Notes: generated by a model from the sequence alone, not told the origin. Positions 4,069 through 39,723 are shown, counted from the stretch's first letter. The stretch: DNA of 64,000 nucleotides from an uncultured Verrucomicrobiae bacterium (GCA_963788655.1 CAWBHS010000072.1:320001-384000); one strand, 5' to 3'. A program made the numbers and translations.

Positions 4069-4153
4069 GGCTTCAGGTGATGAAACGGACAGTTGCAACT
4101 CAGTCTTTCGGCGTGGCACACGTTGCGCCCAGGCTGGGTTGTCGAACGCGTTG

Positions 4154-4352
4154 TTCCCCCTCACCCCAGCCCTCTCCCTTGGGGAGAGGGAGCCCGTTTG
4201 GCCCGCCTCGAAAACAACGAATGGCACTCCGACCGTCGATGCCGCTTCGCGCGAAAGTCGAATGGGCGGTCAATGCCACGGACCAGCTCGAATCAAAGAG
4301 CAGTGCCTTCGGCTGTTCCCTCTCCCTGGGGAGAGGGTCAGGGTGAGGGGAA
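4154..4352. repeat. About 200-bp MITE/REPIN-like element, copy 2
   Basis: Same terminal hairpins and related interior (atggcactc, aaagtcgaa, ggcggtcaatgccacgg, ggctgttccctctccc) as 194-394. Confidence 0.85.
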
Positions 4353-4380: not shown

Positions 4381-7300
4381 ATGATCCCCATCGGCAACCA
4401 GACTTCATTCTCCGCGGCCACGCCCACCGTGCCGTTTGATTACGCCCGCGCCAATGACTTTGATGCGTTTGAATGGTTTCCCGACAAGAAACCCGACGGC
4501 GCCGGTTGGGACGAAAGCGACTTGGATGAATCGCGGCGCCGGCACCTGGCCGAACTGGCGCGGGCGCAAAACATGCGCGTGTCCGTTCACGCCCGTTGGC
4601 AAGCCGATCCGCTGCGACCTGGTGCCCAACCGCTACTACTGAGGGATCTTGGACTGGCCCGCGATTTGGGCGCCGTGCTGGTCAATATTCACTTCAACCA
4701 CGAGCAAGGAGTCGAAGCATACGTTCAAGCGGTGATGCCGTTTGTTCGCCAAGTTGGTGAGGTGGGACTACAGCTTGCCATCGAGAATACCCCGCATCAT
4801 GCGCCGGAACAGTTTAACGAGTTGTTTGCGTGCTTGCAGGCGCTCGGCCGTGAAACCGTTCAGCACGTGGGAATGTGTTTTGATCTCGGCCACGCCAACC
4901 TGTGCGCGGCAACCCGTAACGATTATTTGCAGTTCCTCGACCGACTCGATCCGCGCGTGCCAATCATCCATTTGCATTTGCACGAGAATTGGGGTGATGC
5001 TGACAGCCATTTGCCGCTGTTCACCGGTCCCGCGGGGCGGAATGATGCAGGCATTCGCGGCCTGCTGGAACGGTTGCGTCAGCGTCAATATGCCGGCTCG
5101 ATCATCCTCGAACAATGGCCCCAGCCGCCTTCGCTGCTGAACCACGCGCGCGACCGGTTGCTTGACTTGCTTAATTCCTGTAGCAACGGGCGTGAGTCCG
5201 CTCATACTTCTCGTGCATCTGACGTAGCGGCGTCTCGTGAGAGCGCCGCTGACTTGAGCGAAACAAATTTGCAGCGCTCTCACGAGACGCCGCTACGCTC
5301 AGAGGTGGACGATTTCCAGGGCAAACTGGTCGCCGCTGATCAACAGCGCCGCAGTTGGCGGGAGAAGCTGGATTTCGTGCAGGGCCTGTTCACGGACGAC
5401 GCGACACCGCTCACGTCGGAGCAATTGGTCGATATTGCCATCTACCTTCGTTTCCTGGGCACCGGTGAGATCGTATGCGTCGAGGACGGACGGCACTTCC
5501 GTCCGGCCCACCATGCGCGCATGGCCCTGGAGATTCAGCGACGGTTGGCCGAACTGACCACGCCCGACACGGCGTTTATCGCGCGCAAGATTTATCCCTG
5601 GTTGCCCTCCTCGGCCCGGAGCTTTCAGCGCGCTGAGCCACTGACGCGGATTCGCGACATCGCGCATCGCAACGACATTCCCCAGGACCTGAAACGCGAA
5701 ATCAAGCACACCCTCCAAAACAAGCTGCATCGCTGTGCGGGGCCCGAAGACCTGGTGACCTCCACGAAACTGTTGGAACGAATCACCGCGCCGGCGGCCG
5801 ATTACGCGTCGGACTTTGTCGAGCAATTCAAAATTTTCCATGAAGAACTGAAAGAGTTTTTCAACGCCCAATCCTTGGACGAACGGCTGGATGCGCTGTT
5901 GCCCCACGTCGGCGCCAAGGAAACCGAATTGATCCAGCGGTTTCACAAACAGAAAACCAGCACAGCCCAGCCGGCGCTACGGGACGCCTTCAAGTCGCTG
6001 ACCGAATTGCGCTACTGTTTCCTGGAGGGCGCCGCCAAGTGCAAGCCGGAAGAAAAGCAGGAGTTCCTGCTGGCGGACATTGGGCTCGAAGATTTTGCCT
6101 TCGTCCTGTTGAGCAAAATCTTCAATGTCTTCGACGTTGCCAGGACCAAGGCCAAATGGGAACCGCTGCTGGAAACGCTGCGGTTGACCATCACCAACCT
6201 CGCCCTGAGCCGCGTCCAGCCTGAGGAATGCGACGCGCTGGGAGCCGAACTGCGGACTTGGAGCGCTGAACTGAATCCAAAAGACCGCGAACAACTGTTA
6301 CGTTTGAAAGCCACTGCGGACCGTTGTCGGCGTCTGGCGGAAGCTTACAGCGACCGGATTGCCGCGCTGTTCTTTCGGCGGGCCCGGGATCTGGGTCGCG
6401 CGCTGGAGGTGCCCGCGCATGCCATCCAGGTGTACTGCGACTCCGAAATCCGCGGCCATATCGTTTTCCAACTGGCGAAGCTGGTTTCCAGTCTCTTGCG
6501 TCGCGTCCGCGAGCAACTCGAATTGCCCGCCTGGGATGTGCTGGTTGCTGGGCAGGCGAGGGGCCGGTTGCGGATCACCAACCTGCTGGACGATGTGGGC
6601 CAGGATTTGCGCGAGCCCACCGTGGTGATTTTGAGTAACGCGGAAGGCGATGAAGAAATCCCGCAAAGCGTCACCGGCATTGTGCTGGGACACGGTATTC
6701 CGCATTTGTCGCATCTCGGAGTGCGCGCCCGTCAGGCCGGGGTGGTGCTGGTCACTTGCGAGGAGCCGGAAACGTTCAAGCAACTGGAGTGCTTCGATGG
6801 CCAATCGGTCTTGCTGTCGGCGACTCCCGAAAACGTAGAATGCACACCGGCCAAAAGCTCCGCCGCTACGACAAGCAGGGCTCCGGGCAGACCAGTGCTA
6901 GTTCCCGAAGTGCGCCTCGATCCCAAACGGCCTTGGCTGCCCCTGGAACAGGTCACTCCGGAATCCGGCGGGGGCAAAGCAAACGGCGCCCGGCGTTTGG
7001 CCGAATTGGCCCGCCGGAATGATGCCGGATTCAACACTCCCACCGGCGGCGTGATTCCTTTTGGCGTCATGGAAGCGGCGTTGCGCGCCAGGCCAGAGGT
7101 GGAAGCGGAATATGGCAAGCTACTCCAACAGGCCACCGGGAAGTCGGCTGACACGTTGACCGCGACAGCGGAACGGTTGCGCAGTTTGATCCAGCAGTTC
7201 GAGGTGCCCGAAGCGATTGCCAAAGCGATTGCCCAGACATTCAAGCCAGACGCCCGACTCATCGTCCGATCGAGCGCCAATTGCGAGGACTTGCCGGAAA

Positions 7301-7903
7301 TGGCCGGCGCCGGCCTCTATGAATCCGTCGCGAATGTGGCGCCCGCGGACGTAGCTGACGCCGTGCGGACGGTGTGGGCGTCGCTCTGGACCCGACGGGC
7401 CGCCTTAAGCCGTCAGCAAGCCGGTATTCCGCACGAACAGGCGCATATCGCAGTGCTCATCCAGGAGTTGCTCACGCCGGACTGCTCGTTTGTCCTGCAC
7501 ACCGTCAATCCGATCAATCACGACGCCGATGAAGTCTATGCCGAACTGGCGATTGGGCTGGGAGAAACACTCGCGTCGGCGGCTATTCGCGGCAATCCGT
7601 ATCGATTGATTTGCCCCAAAAGCTCCAAGGCAGTCACCACACTGGCCTTCGCGAACTTCAGCGAGTCGCTCTGGCCTGATCCCGCCGGCGGTCTGCAACG
7701 CAAAACGGTGGACTATTCGCGCGTCGAGTTGTCGCGAAACGCCGAAGCTCGCCAGCAACTCGGAAGACGCCTGGCGGCCATTGGCCGGTTGGTCGAAGCA
7801 GAATTGAAATCCCCCCAGGACATCGAAGGCGCGGTAGTTGGCGGCAGACATTTACCTCGTGCAAGCACGTCCACAACAGGGGCTGGGTAGCTATGAGCGC
7901 TAA
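4381..7903 (+). CDS. Fusion of AP-endonuclease-2/xylose-isomerase-like TIM barrel and phosphoglucan water dikinase (PWD/GWD3-like); frameshift near 7845
   Basis: N-terminal ~265 aa has AIENT, CFDLGHAN, HLHLHEN..DSHLP, IILE; PWD-type motifs SWREKL, EDGRHFRPAHHA, PLTRIRDIAHRNDIPQDLKREIKHTLQNKLHRCAGPEDL; phospho-His PHLSHLGVRARQ (His codon 6712); VRSSANCEDL..MAGAGLYES. The ORF track stops at 7890 but a shifted frame gives the expected IYLVQARPQ ending at TAA 7901-7903. Confidence 0.88.
5223..5297. repeat. Intragenic in-frame REPIN-like inverted repeat (GTAG-type REP pair)
   Basis: Perfect 24-bp arms CGTAGCGGCGTCTCGTGAGAGCGC (5223-5246) and its reverse complement (5274-5297); another GTAG-led half element at about 5180-5203. 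Confidence 0.8.
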
Positions 7904-7937
7904 CTCAGGCATGTTACCTATGGATACAGAAGGCGAT

Positions 7938-8053
7938 GTCGGACCGGCGTCCCGCGTGTCTCGAATTTCCCAACGACGCTCGACGTATCGCGGAACTGGC
8001 TGCAACGGTTGGGAGCCGCTGGTCATTCGGGACAGCCGGGACGGCTGTCCTAC
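7938..8053. repeat. 116-bp REPIN-like element, copy 1
   Basis: GTCGGACCGGCGTCCCGCGTGTC...GACAGCCGGGACGGCTGTCCTAC; same length and related ends as 29515-29630. Confidence 0.7.
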
Positions 8054-8088
8054 GGGCGTGTTCGCTCATTTGGATTTCCAATAGATTC

Positions 8089-9273
8089 ATGCGCCCCTCG
8101 CTTCCCCAGCATCCGCCAACCCTCGGGTTGTTCGAGAAACGGATCGACGGTGACGATTGCCTGATGGATTTGGCCCGGCTGCGTTTTCAGCAGGCTGGTA
8201 TGGGCACGGAAATGCACGCCGGCACACCCGCAGAATTGGATTGGGTCATGCAATGGCGTCCCTCGCCAGCGACACCTGTCGTGGTTCACTTGCCGCGGCA
8301 CTTCGATCTGACCGACGAGCACACGCGAGCCCAAGTTCAGGGAATGGCTGCTTACTCTGCCGGCCGGATTCATGGATTCGTGCTGCACGACGGCGCCGAT
8401 ATGGCGGTGCGCGCCGCAGACTATCACCGCGCGGCTCAGGAAATGGAATCGCGACTGGCGCGCATCCAGCAATGCCCGCTGCTGTTCATCGAATACGCGG
8501 CGGGCTTGGAACCGGATCTTTTCGCCGGTTTCTTTTCCTCCATCCGCAACTTGTCCCGTTTGAGCGCCTGCATCGACATCGGCCATGTAGGCATTCGGCA
8601 GGCGCGGAAAGCGTTTGCGCAGGTGCATCCCGGCGAAGATGTATGCGCGCTGAAGTCCAATCCTTCCCGCCTGCCGCAACTCATGCCGGACGTGGAAGCC
8701 GCAGTGCGAACGGCTTTACCAACCGTGCTGCACCTGATCGAAACGCTCGGTGCGCTGGGTAAACCGATTCACTTCCATTTGCACGATGGCCACCCACTTT
8801 CCACCTTCAGCCCGTTCGGCGTCTCGGATCACTTGAGCTTTTTCCAGGAGATGCCGCTGCCCTTCGATTGCCATGACCAGCAATCGTCGCCGTTGATGTT
8901 TGGTCCGAACGGCCTTTCCCGAATTGTCGCCAAAGCGATGGAGGCCATCGGTCGCGAACGGGTTTCGTTCACATTGGAAATTCATCCGACCTTCGAACGC
9001 CTGGCGTTGGGCGACGCGGCCAACCTCTTTGAGCATTGGCGTGACCGGACCAACGCCGAGATGATGAACCACTGGCTCGCGGTGCTCAGTCGAAACCATG
9101 AACTACTGCTGGCGGCAATCAGCAAGCGGGCGGCCGATGCGTTGGTGGCGCACTTGATACCTCGCCCGACGCCGTTGGTTTTGAACTCGCCCAGGCGACA
9201 GATAATGGCTCCGGTGATTCCTTGCGGATTCGCAACAATTTTGGAATCGCGTGCGATCAGTCCGCCGTTCTGA
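8089..9273 (+). CDS. AP-endonuclease-2/xylose-isomerase-like TIM-barrel metalloprotein of unknown function
   Basis: FIEY, CIDIGHVG, HFHLHDGH, SDHLSF and TLEIH metal-ligand pattern; start set at ATG 8089 because the upstream ORF part is REP sequence. Confidence 0.7.
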   Translation: MRPSLPQHPPTLGLFEKRIDGDDCLMDLARLRFQQAGMGTEMHAGTPAELDWVMQWRPSPATPVVVHLPRHFDLTDEHTRAQVQGMAAYSAGRIHGFVLHDGADMAVRAADYHRAAQEMESRLARIQQCPLLFIEYAAGLEPDLFAGFFSSIRNLSRLSACIDIGHVGIRQARKAFAQVHPGEDVCALKSNPSRLPQLMPDVEAAVRTALPTVLHLIETLGALGKPIHFHLHDGHPLSTFSPFGVSDHLSFFQEMPLPFDCHDQQSSPLMFGPNGLSRIVAKAMEAIGRERVSFTLEIHPTFERLALGDAANLFEHWRDRTNAEMMNHWLAVLSRNHELLLAAISKRAADALVAHLIPRPTPLVLNSPRRQIMAPVIPCGFATILESRAISPPF

Positions 9274-9318
9274 AGAGAATTGCTGAGCTCGGCTGTCGTC
9301 TATTGATTCGCCGATTCT

Positions 9319-16217: not shown

Positions 16218-16673
16218 TTAACCAGCGGAGTTCGCGAGGCTGGCCGGCTCAACAACCGTGATGCTGTGAAAACCCGCAAAATCCGTCGGATTGAATGTCA
16301 GTAAACAATCGATCGCGTTGGCTTTCATGACCGCCACCAGCCGCGCATCATGAACGCGTTTGCCGACGACGGGTATGTTTTCAACCAAGCGCAACCACTC
16401 GATGAGAATTTGCGGGCTTTCTTCAACCACCGGAAACTTATCACGAAGAACCTTTATCTCCCGGCGGGTGCATTCGAGATCCCACCCTAATCCGTTGGCG
16501 CCTACTGGCCGAGTCGCCACGGCCCAGAACTCGACCAGATTCTGGGCGGTAATGAAGACTTCGTGATTCGCGCGGAAAAGCGTCGCCAGCGCGTGCGCCG
16601 CGATGGGGTTCTGCGGAGAATGTGTGTCCATCAGCCGCAGCAGCAGGTTCGTGTCGGCCAAATAGCGTGCCAT
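16218..16673 (-). CDS. vapC: PIN-domain (VapC-like) toxin
   Basis: YLADTNLL, QNLVEFW, RVHDARLVA, LLTFNPTDF; ATG overlaps the upstream TGA. Confidence 0.85.
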   Translation of the reverse strand: MARYLADTNLLLRLMDTHSPQNPIAAHALATLFRANHEVFITAQNLVEFWAVATRPVGANGLGWDLECTRREIKVLRDKFPVVEESPQILIEWLRLVENIPVVGKRVHDARLVAVMKANAIDCLLTFNPTDFAGFHSITVVEPASLANSAG

Positions 16674-16936
16674 CACTCGTAAATTGCGTCTCGGCCAACC
16701 GCCTGATTCGACAAACCCGGACCGTCCGTGTGGCTGGCTGCCCATTGGAGAATGTCCTTAGCACGCTCCTCGGGCGTGGCGGTCATCCAGAACGGCGTCT
16801 CGCCTTGGGCTGGCGCGAGAATCACCTGCTGGCCTTGGCGTGAGGCCACGTAACGAGTGTGCGGCTCGGGGCAAGGCAGAATCGCTTGGGGAAGTCGCAA
16901 CGTACCGGACTCATCCACTTCAACAATCGTGCTCAT
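16673..16936 (-). CDS. Putative antitoxin (AbrB-like N-terminus)
   Basis: 87 aa, VEVDESGTLRLP start, ends RDAIYE; translationally coupled to the PIN gene. Confidence 0.7.
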   Translation of the reverse strand: MSTIVEVDESGTLRLPQAILPCPEPHTRYVASRQGQQVILAPAQGETPFWMTATPEERAKDILQWAASHTDGPGLSNQAVGRDAIYE

Positions 16937-36300: not shown

Positions 36301-39300
36301 TTATTCCAAGTGGCGCTTTTGCAGTTCAAGTATTTCTTGTCGCAGGTGGGCAAGGTGTTGGGCTTGCTCAGCATTGCCCGATGACGTGTTCTGCAATCGG
36401 TCCAAATGAAACAATGCAGCGTTCCATTGTTGATGATCCATGCAGGCGTGAACTTGATTCTCGTGCCACGTCGCGAGTTCGGTTGGCGAAACCACAAATG
36501 CATCCGGGCAGCGGACGCGTAAGGACTCCCATCTTTGGTGGAGGGAGACTCGGCCGCCTGGCGCATTAGCTTCATTGCTGGTTGCAAGGGTGATACCGGT
36601 TTCCAGATCCGCCAGTTGGCCTAACTCGTCCGCTGTCTCATGGGCGAAAGGCAGTTTCAGGATGGCGGCTCCCCCGTGGTTATTAGCAGTGAGCAAGTAG
36701 CGGTCGTCCCCTGCGAATTGAACGCGTAACGCTAAAAAACCAATCGGCACCGGTGGCGTGATTGGTCGGCTCGTTGCTATGTCCCAAATCCGGGCCGTTT
36801 GGTGGCCGCACACCGTTACCAGCCATTGGCCGTTCTCGCTGAACGCCGCCCCGTAAACTTTCGATTTATGTTGCAACGGCATGGTGATGGGTTGTTTGGT
36901 GTCGGCGTCCCATACCATTGCTGTGAAGTCTTCCCCGGTGGTTACGAGGCGTCGCCCGTCGTCACTGAAGGCAACGTAGAGCACTCCGTCTTTGTGCGGC
37001 AGCGGCGGCCCAACGGATTGTCCATTACGGGTGTCCCAGACCTGTGCGACGCACTTGTTCAAGCCGTTATCCTGCGTGCCGGTAACCACCTGCTGTCCAT
37101 CGGGCCGAAATTGAACACACCACACTTCCTTGGAATGAAGGAGCGCCGGACAATGGAGCGCTCCGGAGTCAACCTCCCAAAGTTGGACCGAACGGCCGCA
37201 AACCGTCAGCAAAATGTGGCTGTCGGGACTGAACACGGCGTTGCTGATCGCGGCGGCCGTGTGTATCGGCGGCAAAGAAGGCTGTCCGGTACGGGCATCG
37301 TAAAGCTGCGCGGTCTGGTCGCTATACACCGCAACGTGTTGGCCATCCTCACTGAGGAGCACGCCCGTGCCAGCGGCTGCAATTGGGATCGGGGGCGAGA
37401 GTTTTTCTCCGGTCCTCACGTTCCCAACTTGAACGAGGTTTGACGCACCATTCATTCCCGAAGCGATTGAATATCGGGCAAGGATATAGCTGCCGTTTCG
37501 CGAGAGACTTGTCGTTTGCACCGGCTGAGGCAAATCAAGCGTCGGTTGGAAGGTGATCCCCGTGTTGACCTCCAGAATCTGCACTGTGTTGGACTGCCAC
37601 GTTAGCAGTTGGCCACTTGGCGAAATCGACGCGGGATGGATTTCCCGTCGCGCAGTGGCGCAGCCTGCCAAATCCCACACCCGGACGGTGCCGTCAGCGC
37701 AGGCCGACACGATCCGATGACTGTCCGGGTCGAAGGCCGCGTGGATCACTCCGCCGGAGTGTTTTAACATCGGGTGCCCGCGAACCGGTTGGCGGGAATA
37801 GGTATCCCATACCCGCACGGTTTTGTCAAAGCTCGAGGTGACGATCCAGCGGCCGTCTGGACTGTAATCGACGCTGGTGATGCCATCGTCGTGTTTCAGC
37901 GGCGGCGGCAATTCTTCACCGCTTTCCACTTCCCAAATCCGCGCGTTACGATCGTACGACGCGGTCACAATAAACCGGTCATCCGGACTGAAGGCTGCCC
38001 CGTAAACCCAGTTGGGATGTCGTAGGGGAGGGGCGGCCAGGTTGCCAGTGGTGGCGTCCCAGATCAAGGCAGTGTGATCGATGCTACAGGTCACAATCCG
38101 TCGTCCGTCATGGCTGAAGGCCGCATAGAGAATGAGGTCGGTGTGTTTGCGTAACTCACGCGCCAGCGTTCCGGTGTGAGCATTCCAGAGGTATGCGAGG
38201 TGATTGTTGCAAGCCGTCACCACCCATCGGTCGTCCGGGCTGAAGTGGGCGTTCTTGACTCGCGCGGGATGGGGTAATTGCCGGATGCGTTCGCGCGTCT
38301 GAGCATTCCAAATTGTCGCGGTTTTGTCCCAACCAGCCGTCACGATCCAAGTGCCGTCATGGCTAAACGAGGCGGTTTCCAGTCCGGGACCCGCCCCAAA
38401 CGGTGGGCCAACCGGTTGCCCCGAAGCCAGGTTGCAGATACGGGCTCCTCGGCGTTGCATGCTAATCAAGACGCGCGTCCCATCGGGGCTGAATTCAACA
38501 TCGTTGGCCGCCTCGTCCATGACCCACAAATGGGTCAGTTTGGGACAGGCGTCCAACACCGTGCCCAGCCGCAGCCGATGGGCAGGATCGTGTAGGCCGG
38601 GCTCCAGTTGCCAGGCCGCCGCAAAGGCCGGCAGCGAACTCAGAAAATCGCCGGCGTCCACGTCATGGATGCCATCAGCAATCATGCCGCCAATCTCCCG
38701 CTGTCGCATTTCGGCCGCGTGCTGGATTTCTCGATTGACAGCAACCCCCACAGCGAGCGCCACGCATCCCGCCACGGCGGCACCGATGCCAAGTCGCTTG
38801 GCCTTGGCCAGACGCTGCTCCAACCAATGCAGCCGTTTGATGGACTTGCCCTTGGACAACGCAAACAGGTCGGCGTGCAGATCGTGCGCGGTGGCGTAGC
38901 GCTCGGCCCGCTCCGGTTGGCAGGCCTTAATGATGATCTCATTAAGCTCAAGGCATTCCTCCGCATCCGGCCAAGTATTCAGCGCTCGCGGCAGCTCGGG
39001 GAATTCCTGCCGGTCCAAGCCCGTACTCAGTTCATAGAGCACTTTGCCCAGACTGTACACGTCCGCCTGAAACGTACCGGGGCCTTCCGGCGGAATGAAA
39101 CCCGTCGTGCCTACGTAAGTACGCGCCTCTTTAAGCGTGCGGACCAAACCGATGTCCGCCAACTTGGGCGTTCCGCGCACAAAGATGATGTTGGACGGCT
39201 TGATGTCACGATGCACCAATTCATGCCGGTGCAGATGATCAATGGCTTCGCTCAATCGCAAGCCCAGCGCGACACACTCGTTGGCCGGCAACCGGCCGCG

Positions 39301-39723
39301 CCGGGCTAGTTCGTCCGCCAACGTCTTGGGCACGTATGTCTCGGGATTCGGTACCCCACCAGGCGGACCGTCTTTTCGGTCGTCACCCAATTCCATTACG
39401 TAATAAAAAAAACCGGCCTGTTCATCCCGGCCGACTTGCAGCACGTCCACCAATCCGTCGTGCGAGCGCGAAATGGGTTCGAAGTTTTTGATGCCCTCAT
39501 ACTCCCGTTCCGCAAGTCGATCGGGATCTTGCTCATCCCAGACAACCACTTTGACCGCGCGCGACGTTCCCAAGCGGTTTAGCGCAAGCCAGACGGTACC
39601 ATAGCTTCCCTGGCCAATGCGACGCAGCACCTCGTGCTCCGGGATGTGCGGAATCAGGGGAGCAGCGTCCGTGGAAACGGTGTTGCCGGTTGTCTTGTGC
39701 TCTGAATCTTCGCGACTATTCAT
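36301..39723 (-). CDS. Ser/Thr protein kinase with a TM-like segment and WD40 repeats
   Basis: IGQGSYGTVW, AVK, HRDIKPSN, DIG in place of DFG, DVYSLG; many FSPDG..IVT.S.D.TARIW repeats. Confidence 0.92.
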   Translation of the reverse strand: MNSREDSEHKTTGNTVSTDAAPLIPHIPEHEVLRRIGQGSYGTVWLALNRLGTSRAVKVVVWDEQDPDRLAEREYEGIKNFEPISRSHDGLVDVLQVGRDEQAGFFYYVMELGDDRKDGPPGGVPNPETYVPKTLADELARRGRLPANECVALGLRLSEAIDHLHRHELVHRDIKPSNIIFVRGTPKLADIGLVRTLKEARTYVGTTGFIPPEGPGTFQADVYSLGKVLYELSTGLDRQEFPELPRALNTWPDAEECLELNEIIIKACQPERAERYATAHDLHADLFALSKGKSIKRLHWLEQRLAKAKRLGIGAAVAGCVALAVGVAVNREIQHAAEMRQREIGGMIADGIHDVDAGDFLSSLPAFAAAWQLEPGLHDPAHRLRLGTVLDACPKLTHLWVMDEAANDVEFSPDGTRVLISMQRRGARICNLASGQPVGPPFGAGPGLETASFSHDGTWIVTAGWDKTATIWNAQTRERIRQLPHPARVKNAHFSPDDRWVVTACNNHLAYLWNAHTGTLARELRKHTDLILYAAFSHDGRRIVTCSIDHTALIWDATTGNLAAPPLRHPNWVYGAAFSPDDRFIVTASYDRNARIWEVESGEELPPPLKHDDGITSVDYSPDGRWIVTSSFDKTVRVWDTYSRQPVRGHPMLKHSGGVIHAAFDPDSHRIVSACADGTVRVWDLAGCATARREIHPASISPSGQLLTWQSNTVQILEVNTGITFQPTLDLPQPVQTTSLSRNGSYILARYSIASGMNGASNLVQVGNVRTGEKLSPPIPIAAAGTGVLLSEDGQHVAVYSDQTAQLYDARTGQPSLPPIHTAAAISNAVFSPDSHILLTVCGRSVQLWEVDSGALHCPALLHSKEVWCVQFRPDGQQVVTGTQDNGLNKCVAQVWDTRNGQSVGPPLPHKDGVLYVAFSDDGRRLVTTGEDFTAMVWDADTKQPITMPLQHKSKVYGAAFSENGQWLVTVCGHQTARIWDIATSRPITPPVPIGFLALRVQFAGDDRYLLTANNHGGAAILKLPFAHETADELGQLADLETGITLATSNEANAPGGRVSLHQRWESLRVRCPDAFVVSPTELATWHENQVHACMDHQQWNAALFHLDRLQNTSSGNAEQAQHLAHLRQEILELQKRHLE

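Follow-up and report, generated by a model that had tools for sequence, protein, structure and literature searches.

Two candidate metal-dependent TIM barrels encoded with glucan, water dikinase-type genes in a Verrucomicrobiae glycogen cluster

A glycogen gene cluster of an uncultured Verrucomicrobiae bacterium encodes two dikinases of the types that phosphorylate starch in plants, together with two TIM barrels that may remove the phosphate again. The cluster lies at the start of a window of 64,000 nucleotides, the whole stretch of DNA analysed (GCA_963788655.1 CAWBHS010000072.1:320001-384000, here G000:C72:320001-384000), and the source genome is 8.96 Mb in size and 86% complete. On the + strand the gene order is glgA (directly upstream of the window), a gene for an alpha-glucan, water dikinase (GWD)-like protein, a gene for a phosphoglucan, water dikinase (PWD)-like protein that carries the first barrel at its N-terminus (barrel::PWD), and a gene for the second barrel, P3. 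The barrels are predicted to be metal-dependent phosphoglucan phosphatases, functional analogues of SEX4 and LSF2, with a probability of about 0.5 on the sequence evidence.

The cluster of glgA, GWD, barrel::PWD, and P3 would encode a bacterial cycle for the reversible phosphorylation of storage alpha-glucan. Both dikinases would phosphorylate glucan chains, first at C6 and then at C3 if the analogy with plant GWD and PWD holds. Both barrels would act as metal-dependent phosphoesterases and would belong, within the xylose-isomerase-like TIM-barrel superfamily, to the endonuclease IV/CbiR branch, with the first as the partner of GWD and P3 as that of PWD. By hydrolysing the phosphate esters they would strip glucan-bound phosphate, so that amylases and phosphorylase could continue the degradation of the chain. 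They would thus fill the role of SEX4/LSF2 in plants and of laforin in animals with an unrelated fold. The metal content of the barrels and any specificity for one phosphate position are likewise putative.

The first barrel belongs to the xylose-isomerase-like superfamily and has a highly conserved set of potential metal ligands. Its PF01261 match scores 73.1 bits (E 3.7e-20), where the gathering cut-off is 31.1. All of 30 aligned homologues, which come from several phyla, share the residues E135, D168-x-G-H171, H197-x-H199-x-H201, D208-x-H210, and E244, along with H70, H104, and E31. Among the motifs of the barrel are H-L-H-L-H-E-N, D-S-H, and L-E-Q. A reading made earlier from the sequence alone (the sequence-only reading) had placed an AP-endonuclease-2/xylose-isomerase-like barrel with the pattern E, DxGH, HxH, DxH, E at the N-terminus of the PWD-like protein, and this is borne out. 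In a comparison of profiles with hhalign, the barrel aligns with Escherichia coli Nfo over 205 columns (E 6.3e-5, probability 64%), and H70, H104, E135, D168, H171, H199, D208, H210, and E244 fall on Nfo H69, H109, E145, D179, H182, H216, D229, H231, and E261. These nine Nfo residues are the ligands of its three-zinc centre, as reportedly described by Hosfield et al. in 1999.

Searches with profiles and with a structural model place the first barrel near endonuclease IV, CbiR, and sugar epimerases. When the 30 barrel sequences were compared with NCBIfam, all 30 matched CbiR (best 3.5e-11), while 10 matched DNase IV (PRK01060.1-3), five matched nfo (TIGR00587, E <=0.01), and three weakly matched L-ribulose-5-phosphate 3-epimerase; all of these scores are far under the family cut-offs. 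Against PDB sequences, the barrel profile found MJ1311 (1.2e-11), Mycobacterium tuberculosis endonuclease IV (5e-4), African swine fever virus (ASFV) AP endonuclease (7e-4), and UlaE (E 0.045). The AlphaFold2 model has a pLDDT of 88.3. Its best fold match is again MJ1311 (3wqo), with a Z score of 24.2 and a root-mean-square deviation of 2.8 over 240 residues at 22% identity, which is about 2 Z above the next match. Below it, at Z 19.6-22.4, are epimerases, the ASFV AP endonuclease (Z 21.5), and endonuclease IV (Z 19.6-20.4). A search of representative sequences for the first barrel returned 124 at E <=1e-30, comprising fusions of about 1100-1300 aa, stand-alone forms of about 265-350 aa, and fragments, in agreement with a barrel gene that was once separate and then merged with PWD.

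By its model and by profile alignment, P3 is likewise a (beta/alpha)8 barrel and shares the superfamily of the first, although no Pfam family matches it. The AlphaFold2 model has a mean pLDDT of 86.4 and a pTM of 0.83; the last 40 or so residues are non-conserved and of low confidence. In a fold search with VIA-align, Z scores of 18-19 over about 240-270 residues were obtained to ASFV AP endonuclease, MJ1311, ketose epimerases, and xylose isomerases, the first two at Z 19.1 and the epimerases and isomerases tied with them within 1 Z. In hhalign, the first five strands of the first barrel and of P3 align (probability 92.6%, E 4.4e-7), pairing H70 with H67, H104 with H100, E135 with E135, D168 with D163, and H171 with H166. 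Among 29 P3 sequences, H67, H100-D101, E135, D163-x-x-H166, H228-x-H230-x-H232-D233-x-H235, D247-H248, and E297-x-H299 are invariant or nearly so. After strand 5 there is an insert of about 55 residues, followed by the motifs H-F-H-L-H-D-G-H, S-D-H, and E-I-H. The sequence-only reading had described this gene as a divergent barrel starting at nt 8089 with the same ligand pattern as the first. The start and the fold agree with the present results, while the ligand pattern proved to be similar rather than identical.

The start of P3 at M52 (nt 8089) was set by alignment with homologues. The open reading frame (ORF) has a 51-codon upstream extension (7936-8088) that is absent from 16 of 16 aligned homologues, and to judge by the alignment it is probably not translated. 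Of the 29 P3 sequences, 12 match CbiR, the only other NCBIfam family is ribonuclease Z (1 of 29, E 0.059), and none of the 29 matches TIGR00587 or PRK01060. A PDB profile search gave endonuclease IV (3aam) as its sole match, at a non-significant E of 1.9. In a protein atlas the nearest clusters are annotated as 'hypothetical protein' (337-362 aa), and a PF01261-bearing cluster reaches only 0.89, so that no lead on function came from it. The idea that P3 is a mere duplicate of the first barrel was rejected, since the two families are separable across genomes and align over the first half only. Fold search was also set aside as a means of telling a phosphoesterase from an isomerase: the Z scores are tied across subfamilies and point to the superfamily only.

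The presence of the barrels in genomes follows that of the dikinases. An evenly sampled phylum-wide set was uninformative, with a dikinase in none of 300 other genomes, and 151 genomes of the window's own order were therefore used. The first barrel was counted at E <=1e-30, and the counts are given without a statistic because related genomes are not independent. Fourteen of the 151 genomes have a dikinase over the cut-off. The first barrel family is found in 13, all of them among these 14, and P3 is found in six, which are exactly those with two dikinase matches. Neither barrel occurs in any of the 137 dikinase-negative genomes of the order. Only G437 has a dikinase but no first barrel; this genome is 81% complete and the frame of its dikinase is truncated.

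The distribution also shows that GWD is accompanied by the first barrel and PWD by P3. This pairing is drawn from the co-occurrence in the order, from the loci with a single dikinase, and from the genome G383. All four annotated single-dikinase loci have a GWD-type dikinase, then a stand-alone barrel, then a GH13 or GH57 gene; the barrel was confirmed with Pfam in L093 and L094 (263 and 285 aa) and placed by a match to the first-barrel profile in L095 and L096. In G383, GWD and a stand-alone barrel are on one contig, and a barrel-less PWD-type gene and P3 are on another. In the barrel::PWD fusion, the middle two genes of the series GWD, barrel, PWD, P3 have merged. In the Nitrospirota lineages of L036, L051, and L069 the fusion has been broken up: 1-6 kb separate the barrel from the PWD-type dikinase, and in two of these loci the barrel region was not called as an intact ORF.

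Synteny and gene fusions connect P3 with dikinases and with other enzymes of glucan metabolism. The family has at least 1245 homologues, and 255 species genomes carry it, belonging to Verrucomicrobiota, Desulfobacterota, Nitrospirota, Planctomycetota (Scalindua, anammox), Chloroflexota, Acidobacteriota, and other groups. Neighbourhoods were counted in the best 80 of the 255 loci, which are biased to close relatives, and 63 of these have at least 3 kb of upstream DNA. A PWD-type dikinase is upstream of P3 in 54 of the 63; it is adjacent in 53 and 3 kb away in L061. One other locus (L070) has GWD and a stand-alone barrel, and in the remaining eight the DNA that was retrieved contains no dikinase. 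A cultured carrier, Luteolibacter marinus NBU1238, has a PWD-type gene beside P3. The genes conserved around P3 encode GT5 glycogen synthase, DUF4912, GH57 branching enzyme, a small GH13/hDGE-amylase-like enzyme, GT4, and glucan phosphorylase. Among 51 long homologues of P3, fusions to a PWD-type dikinase without the barrel account for 12, and fusions to both barrel and dikinase for another 12 (about 1490 aa, one being the 1502-aa protein of L082). P3 is fused with a GH13 amylase-like enzyme in 24, with glycogen phosphorylase in one, and with odd partners (PF00703; GH25 lysozyme) in two. These partners tie P3 to alpha-glucan chains as its probable substrate. The link between barrels and dikinases, which had been suggested from this one locus, is thus strongly supported by synteny, gene fusions, and co-occurrence in genomes.

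The dikinases themselves are of the GWD and PWD types. P0001, the GWD-like protein, has two PF23166 (Ig_N_CWD1) domains, PF22973, and PF01326 in Pfam, which is the architecture of GWD1 (EC 2.7.9.4), and its residues 301-732 match plant chloroplast GWD (PDB 9ha9) with an E-value of 5.1e-94. P0002 (4381-7890, + strand, 1169 aa) has three Pfam families: PF01261 AP_endonuc_2 at residues 19-251, PF22973 GWD1_pHisD at 717-827, and PF01326 PPDK_N at 864-1152. Its GWD-type phosphohistidine domain and PPDK_N nucleotide-binding domain are those of a PWD-type enzyme, and its homologues are named 'phosphoglucan, water dikinase' by JGI. The PPDK_N region matches structures of phosphoenolpyruvate synthase (E 3e-26). 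Inside the phosphohistidine domain is the stretch SHLGVRAR, presumably the motif of the catalytic histidine. No CBM family was found in P0002 by Pfam at E <=0.1, so that the CBM20 of PWD is lacking, and PF01261 is at the N-terminus. The combination of barrel, PF22973, and PF01326 is widespread, with 349 matches of 642-2046 aa; nearly all of the 120 listed carry all three domains.

The end of the P0002 gene appears to contain a frame break. The last 16 or so codons are out of frame relative to the homologues P0125, P0135, and P0159, and a single-base break near 7843 is the apparent cause. The called frame ends at 7890, while the alternative frame reads DIYLVQARPQQG, has the conserved YLVQxRPQQG ending, and stops at 7903. 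Of the public contigs aligned to 7000-9300, two short ones cover only 8389-8837 (90-97% likeness) and not the site near 7843. In two soil-metagenome DNA runs, 0.08 and 0.05 of the sampled words were present, and no RNA run with the sequence is listed.

The sequence evidence leans toward the phosphoesterase branch of the superfamily, because of the alignment of the first barrel with the Nfo ligands and because the curated families closest to this barrel are CbiR and DNase IV; for P3, CbiR alone is matched by more than one sequence. This supports the phosphatase option of the sequence-only reading, whose interpretation as a whole is upheld in part. Neither barrel belongs to a family that has been characterised. 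A PF00782 search of the entire genome (86% complete) gave no dual-specificity phosphatase (DSP) above the cut-off; the only match, of 22 bits, is sub-threshold and on another contig. This extends to the genome the earlier remark that the locus has no CX5R DSP. PF00782 is also absent from P0002 and from P0003, the ORF of P3, in Pfam, and what is proposed for the barrels is an analogous function, not membership in the DSP family.

Several observations weigh against phosphatase activity. Endonuclease IV-like proteins cannot be told from epimerases and isomerases by fold score, either for P3 (Z 18-19) or for the first barrel after its top match (19.6-22.4). The Nfo alignment of the first barrel has a probability of only 64%. 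MJ1311, the best structural match, was deposited as 'D-tagatose 3-epimerase-like protein'. Judged from the sequence, the four ligands of a ketose epimerase are a subset of the nine, and a reaction of the epimerase type would be compatible with them. The D-x-H of the first barrel corresponds to D-H in P3. The hhalign comparison of P3 with Nfo covers only the first half at 16% probability, with only H100, E135, D163, and H166 on ligand positions and H67 not on H69. To our knowledge there is no known activity for either barrel family. In addition, a kinase fused with its own phosphatase would need regulation against a futile cycle.

The occurrence of P3 without dikinases is a further point of this kind. 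P3 homologues with 43-49% identity are found in five of five tested genomes that have neither a GWD-type dikinase nor the first barrel family: three Chloroflexota, one Solirubrobacterales, and one Planctomycetota. The search for PF22973 gave no match in any of the five, while the same search recovered both dikinases of the window's genome as a positive control, and the first barrel family was likewise found in none of them. In these five genomes P3 sits away from glycogen genes. Independence from the dikinases had been named beforehand as a result that would speak against a role in a glucan phosphate cycle. It applies in part to P3, while the first barrel was not found outside the dikinase-bearing genomes of the sample.

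The neighbours of P3 in the dikinase-free genomes are phosphotransfer enzymes. In the three Chloroflexota loci (L076 11004-11867, L086 9915-10703, and L087 11078-11863) a conserved kinase-like gene of about 260-290 aa directly follows P3; it has Pkinase, RIO1, and APH matches, and its best PDB match is ULK3 at an E-value of 9e-10. The Solirubrobacterales locus has a CotH kinase two genes upstream of P3. In the Planctomycetota genome, which has no GWD-type dikinase match, P3 is fused at its C-terminus with a domain of the low-molecular-weight protein tyrosine phosphatase (LMW-PTP)/arsenate reductase type with an intact CX5R(S) loop (L083 9884-11560). The phosphatase step of this fusion could be supplied by the CX5R domain and not by P3, and the fusion can be read for or against P3 as a hydrolase. 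P3 is thus found beside phosphotransfer enzymes whose folds are unrelated, which supports an action on phosphorylated molecules; its presence in dikinase-free genomes indicates that these need not always be glucan.

Most characterised members of the barrel superfamily are sugar-modifying enzymes, and the barrels could be isomerases, epimerases, dehydratases, or lyases that act on phosphorylated glucan ends, phospho-oligosaccharides, or sugar phosphates. Fold matches to ketose 3-epimerases, xylose and rhamnose isomerases, IolE, the 3-keto-glucoside epimerase YcjR, 3-keto-glucoside lyases, and C-glycoside deglycosidases lie within about 1-3 Z of the endonuclease IV-like ones. The weak matches to L-ribulose-5-phosphate 3-epimerase models and to UlaE point the same way, and the E-D-H-E positions of epimerases are present in the first barrel. 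However, the invariant H70, H104, H171, D208, and H210 would be surplus to the mononuclear site of epimerases, and the nearest curated families are phosphodiesterases. The kinases of unrelated folds and the CX5R domain beside P3 are also a better fit with phosphate chemistry, and a sugar-modifying activity is considered unlikely. Another explanation concerns the N-terminal barrel of the PWD-like enzyme, which might be mainly a phosphoglucan reader whose metal site binds the phosphate ester made by GWD, replacing CBM20, with little or no turnover. The barrel does occupy the position of the CBM of plant PWD, and no CBM was found in P0002. According to a 2026 review (PMC13666283), GWD and PWD bind starch via a CBM domain, and plant PWD requires pre-phosphorylated glucan. 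A reader for PWD would have no client, however, where a stand-alone barrel of 263-293 aa adjoins GWD in genomes without a PWD match, or in L070. Invariance of the nine ligand positions in all 30 homologues is usual for catalysis, and barrel-less PWD::P3 fusions exist (for example, L050), so that a pure binding function is distinctly unlikely.

For P3 it is also conceivable that the phosphoester is on a protein, in which case P3 would act as a regulator on phosphoproteins or on the phosphohistidine of its partner kinase and not on glucan. This would suit the loci without glycogen genes, in which a Ser/Thr-kinase-like gene directly follows P3 (three Chloroflexota) or a CotH kinase is nearby (Solirubrobacterales), and the absence of the GWD-type domain from all five such genomes. 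It would not explain the many P3 fusions with GH13 amylase-like enzymes or the one with glycogen phosphorylase. GH13, DUF4912, and GH57 genes also follow P3 in Desulfobacterota, including two loci with no dikinase in the fetched DNA (L026 and L029). A protein-directed role is therefore regarded as very improbable, and removal of phosphate from glucan is the function proposed for both barrels.

Like the plant and algal system of starch phosphorylation, the cluster has two dikinases, of the GWD (EC 2.7.9.4) and PWD (EC 2.7.9.5) types, both with a GWD-type phosphohistidine domain. They are encoded with genes for glucan synthase, branching enzyme, and amylase, and the proposed logic of phosphorylation, hydrolysis, and dephosphorylation is the same. 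In contrast to plants and algae, the genome has no CX5R DSP over the cut-off, and the candidate phosphatases are metal TIM barrels. A barrel takes the place of the CBM20 of PWD, and the genes form one bacterial cluster in which they are variously fused.

The closest known proteins also differ from the barrels. Endonuclease IV and the ASFV AP endonuclease, which are three-metal phosphoesterases, share the TIM-barrel fold with the first barrel at Z 19.6-21.5 and with P3 at Z 18-19, and the first barrel has invariant residues at all nine ligand positions of Nfo, given a 64% alignment probability. Unlike Nfo, the barrels score far under the family cut-offs; neither P0002 nor P0003 gives an nfo listing in NCBIfam at E <=0.1, and the gene context is glycogen metabolism, not DNA repair. 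CbiR (NF041277) is of the same superfamily and is the best curated family match for both barrels. According to PMC7733943 it is a metal-dependent hydrolase that cleaves a sugar-phosphate ester, the phosphoribosyl bond in cobamides. However, the first barrel scores 37.7 bits and P3 17.3 bits, both well short of the CbiR cut-off of 105. The neighbours here are glycogen genes, with no cobamide genes nearby, and P3 has the insert of about 55 residues and extra conserved histidines where CbiR is only about 250 aa long. MJ1311 of Methanocaldococcus jannaschii, the closest solved structure to the first barrel, has VHAP, H-P-G, LEN, DIGHAN, HVHxHDN, D-E-H, and the last-strand E in common with it, but it is a stand-alone archaeal protein. 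It is listed as a predicted EndoIV homologue in a table in PMC2770678.

Reversible glucan phosphorylation is central to the breakdown of plant starch, and its failure causes Lafora disease in humans. Here a bacterial locus combines both dikinases with two candidate erasers whose fold is different. What appears to be new, on present sequence data, is reversible glucan phosphorylation with a different and uncharacterised candidate eraser. If the barrels are phosphatases, they would be a new class of enzymes for modifying starch phosphate, an industrially valuable trait, and would have evolved convergently with SEX4, LSF2, and laforin. More specifically, and tentatively, bacteria of at least six phyla may have writer/eraser modules in which GWD is paired with an endonuclease IV-like three-metal barrel that removes C6-phosphate and PWD with P3 that removes C3-phosphate, forming a new non-DSP class of position-specific glucan phosphatases. 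Paired position-specific erasers would in turn imply a semi-crystalline, starch-like bacterial glucan that needs phosphorylation for its mobilisation. In the 2026 review (PMC13666283), prokaryotes are said to lack laforin and known glucan phosphorylation machinery, and how or whether their glycogen is phosphorylated is treated as open. A literature search found no paper joining a water dikinase with xylose isomerase-like barrels, or bacterial GWD/PWD with phosphatases; its only bacterial match concerns pyruvate, water dikinase (PMC4046663).

The features of the cluster are listed in Table 1. The gene after P3 is on the opposite strand. The glgA gene directly upstream of the window encodes a GT5 glycogen synthase, and farther up are genes for a GH77 MalQ, a CBM48-esterase, and a TreS-C/maltokinase-like protein.

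Table 1. Features of the dikinase and barrel genes, in positions of the window
Feature	Position	Strand	Details and evidence
GWD-like alpha-glucan, water dikinase P0001	493..4068	+	1191 aa; two Ig_N_CWD1, phosphohistidine, and PPDK_N domains (Pfam)
N-terminal xylose-isomerase-like TIM barrel of P0002, residues 1-270	4381..5190	+	PF01261, 30-sequence alignment, AlphaFold2, fold search, hhalign
Low-complexity linker and central region of the PWD-like dikinase	5191..6528	+	No Pfam match; conserved in P0125, P0135, P0159
GWD-type phosphohistidine domain of P0002, residues 717-827	6529..6861	+	PF22973, E 2.9e-24; C72:326529-326861 in genome search
PPDK_N-type ATP/AMP-binding domain of P0002, residues 864-1152	6970..7836	+	PF01326, E 4.2e-36
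C-terminal end of the dikinase with apparent frame break	7837..7903	+	Three-frame translation, C-termini of homologues, DNA
P3, diverged putative metal-binding TIM barrel, 394 aa from M52 of ORF 7936-9273	8089..9273	+	Start by alignment, invariant residues, AlphaFold2, fold search, hhalign

The intergenic regions contain a dispersed element of about 200 bp, at 181-395 before the GWD gene and at 4141-4350 between the GWD and barrel::PWD genes. It is flanked by inverted repeats of about 40 bp (TTCCCCCTCACCCC..CCCTCTCCC..GGGGAGAGGG), and both of its ends are hairpins themselves. A 3-kb query that includes the element gave 147 matches on the contigs of the genome, often in tandem clusters. From its sequence the element looks like a miniature inverted-repeat transposable element (MITE) or a repetitive extragenic palindromic (REP)-type repeat.

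The gene for the GH77 4-alpha-glucanotransferase (MalQ) upstream of the window (L089 5966-8105; G000:C72:310966-313105) is split into two overlapping ORFs, 5966-7585 and 6966-8105, which suggests another frame break of this assembly. Elsewhere in the window are a PIN-domain gene (16218-16745) and a gene for a 1140-aa Ser/Thr kinase fused with WD40 repeats (36301-39723); both are ordinary in such genomes and are unconnected with the dikinases and barrels.

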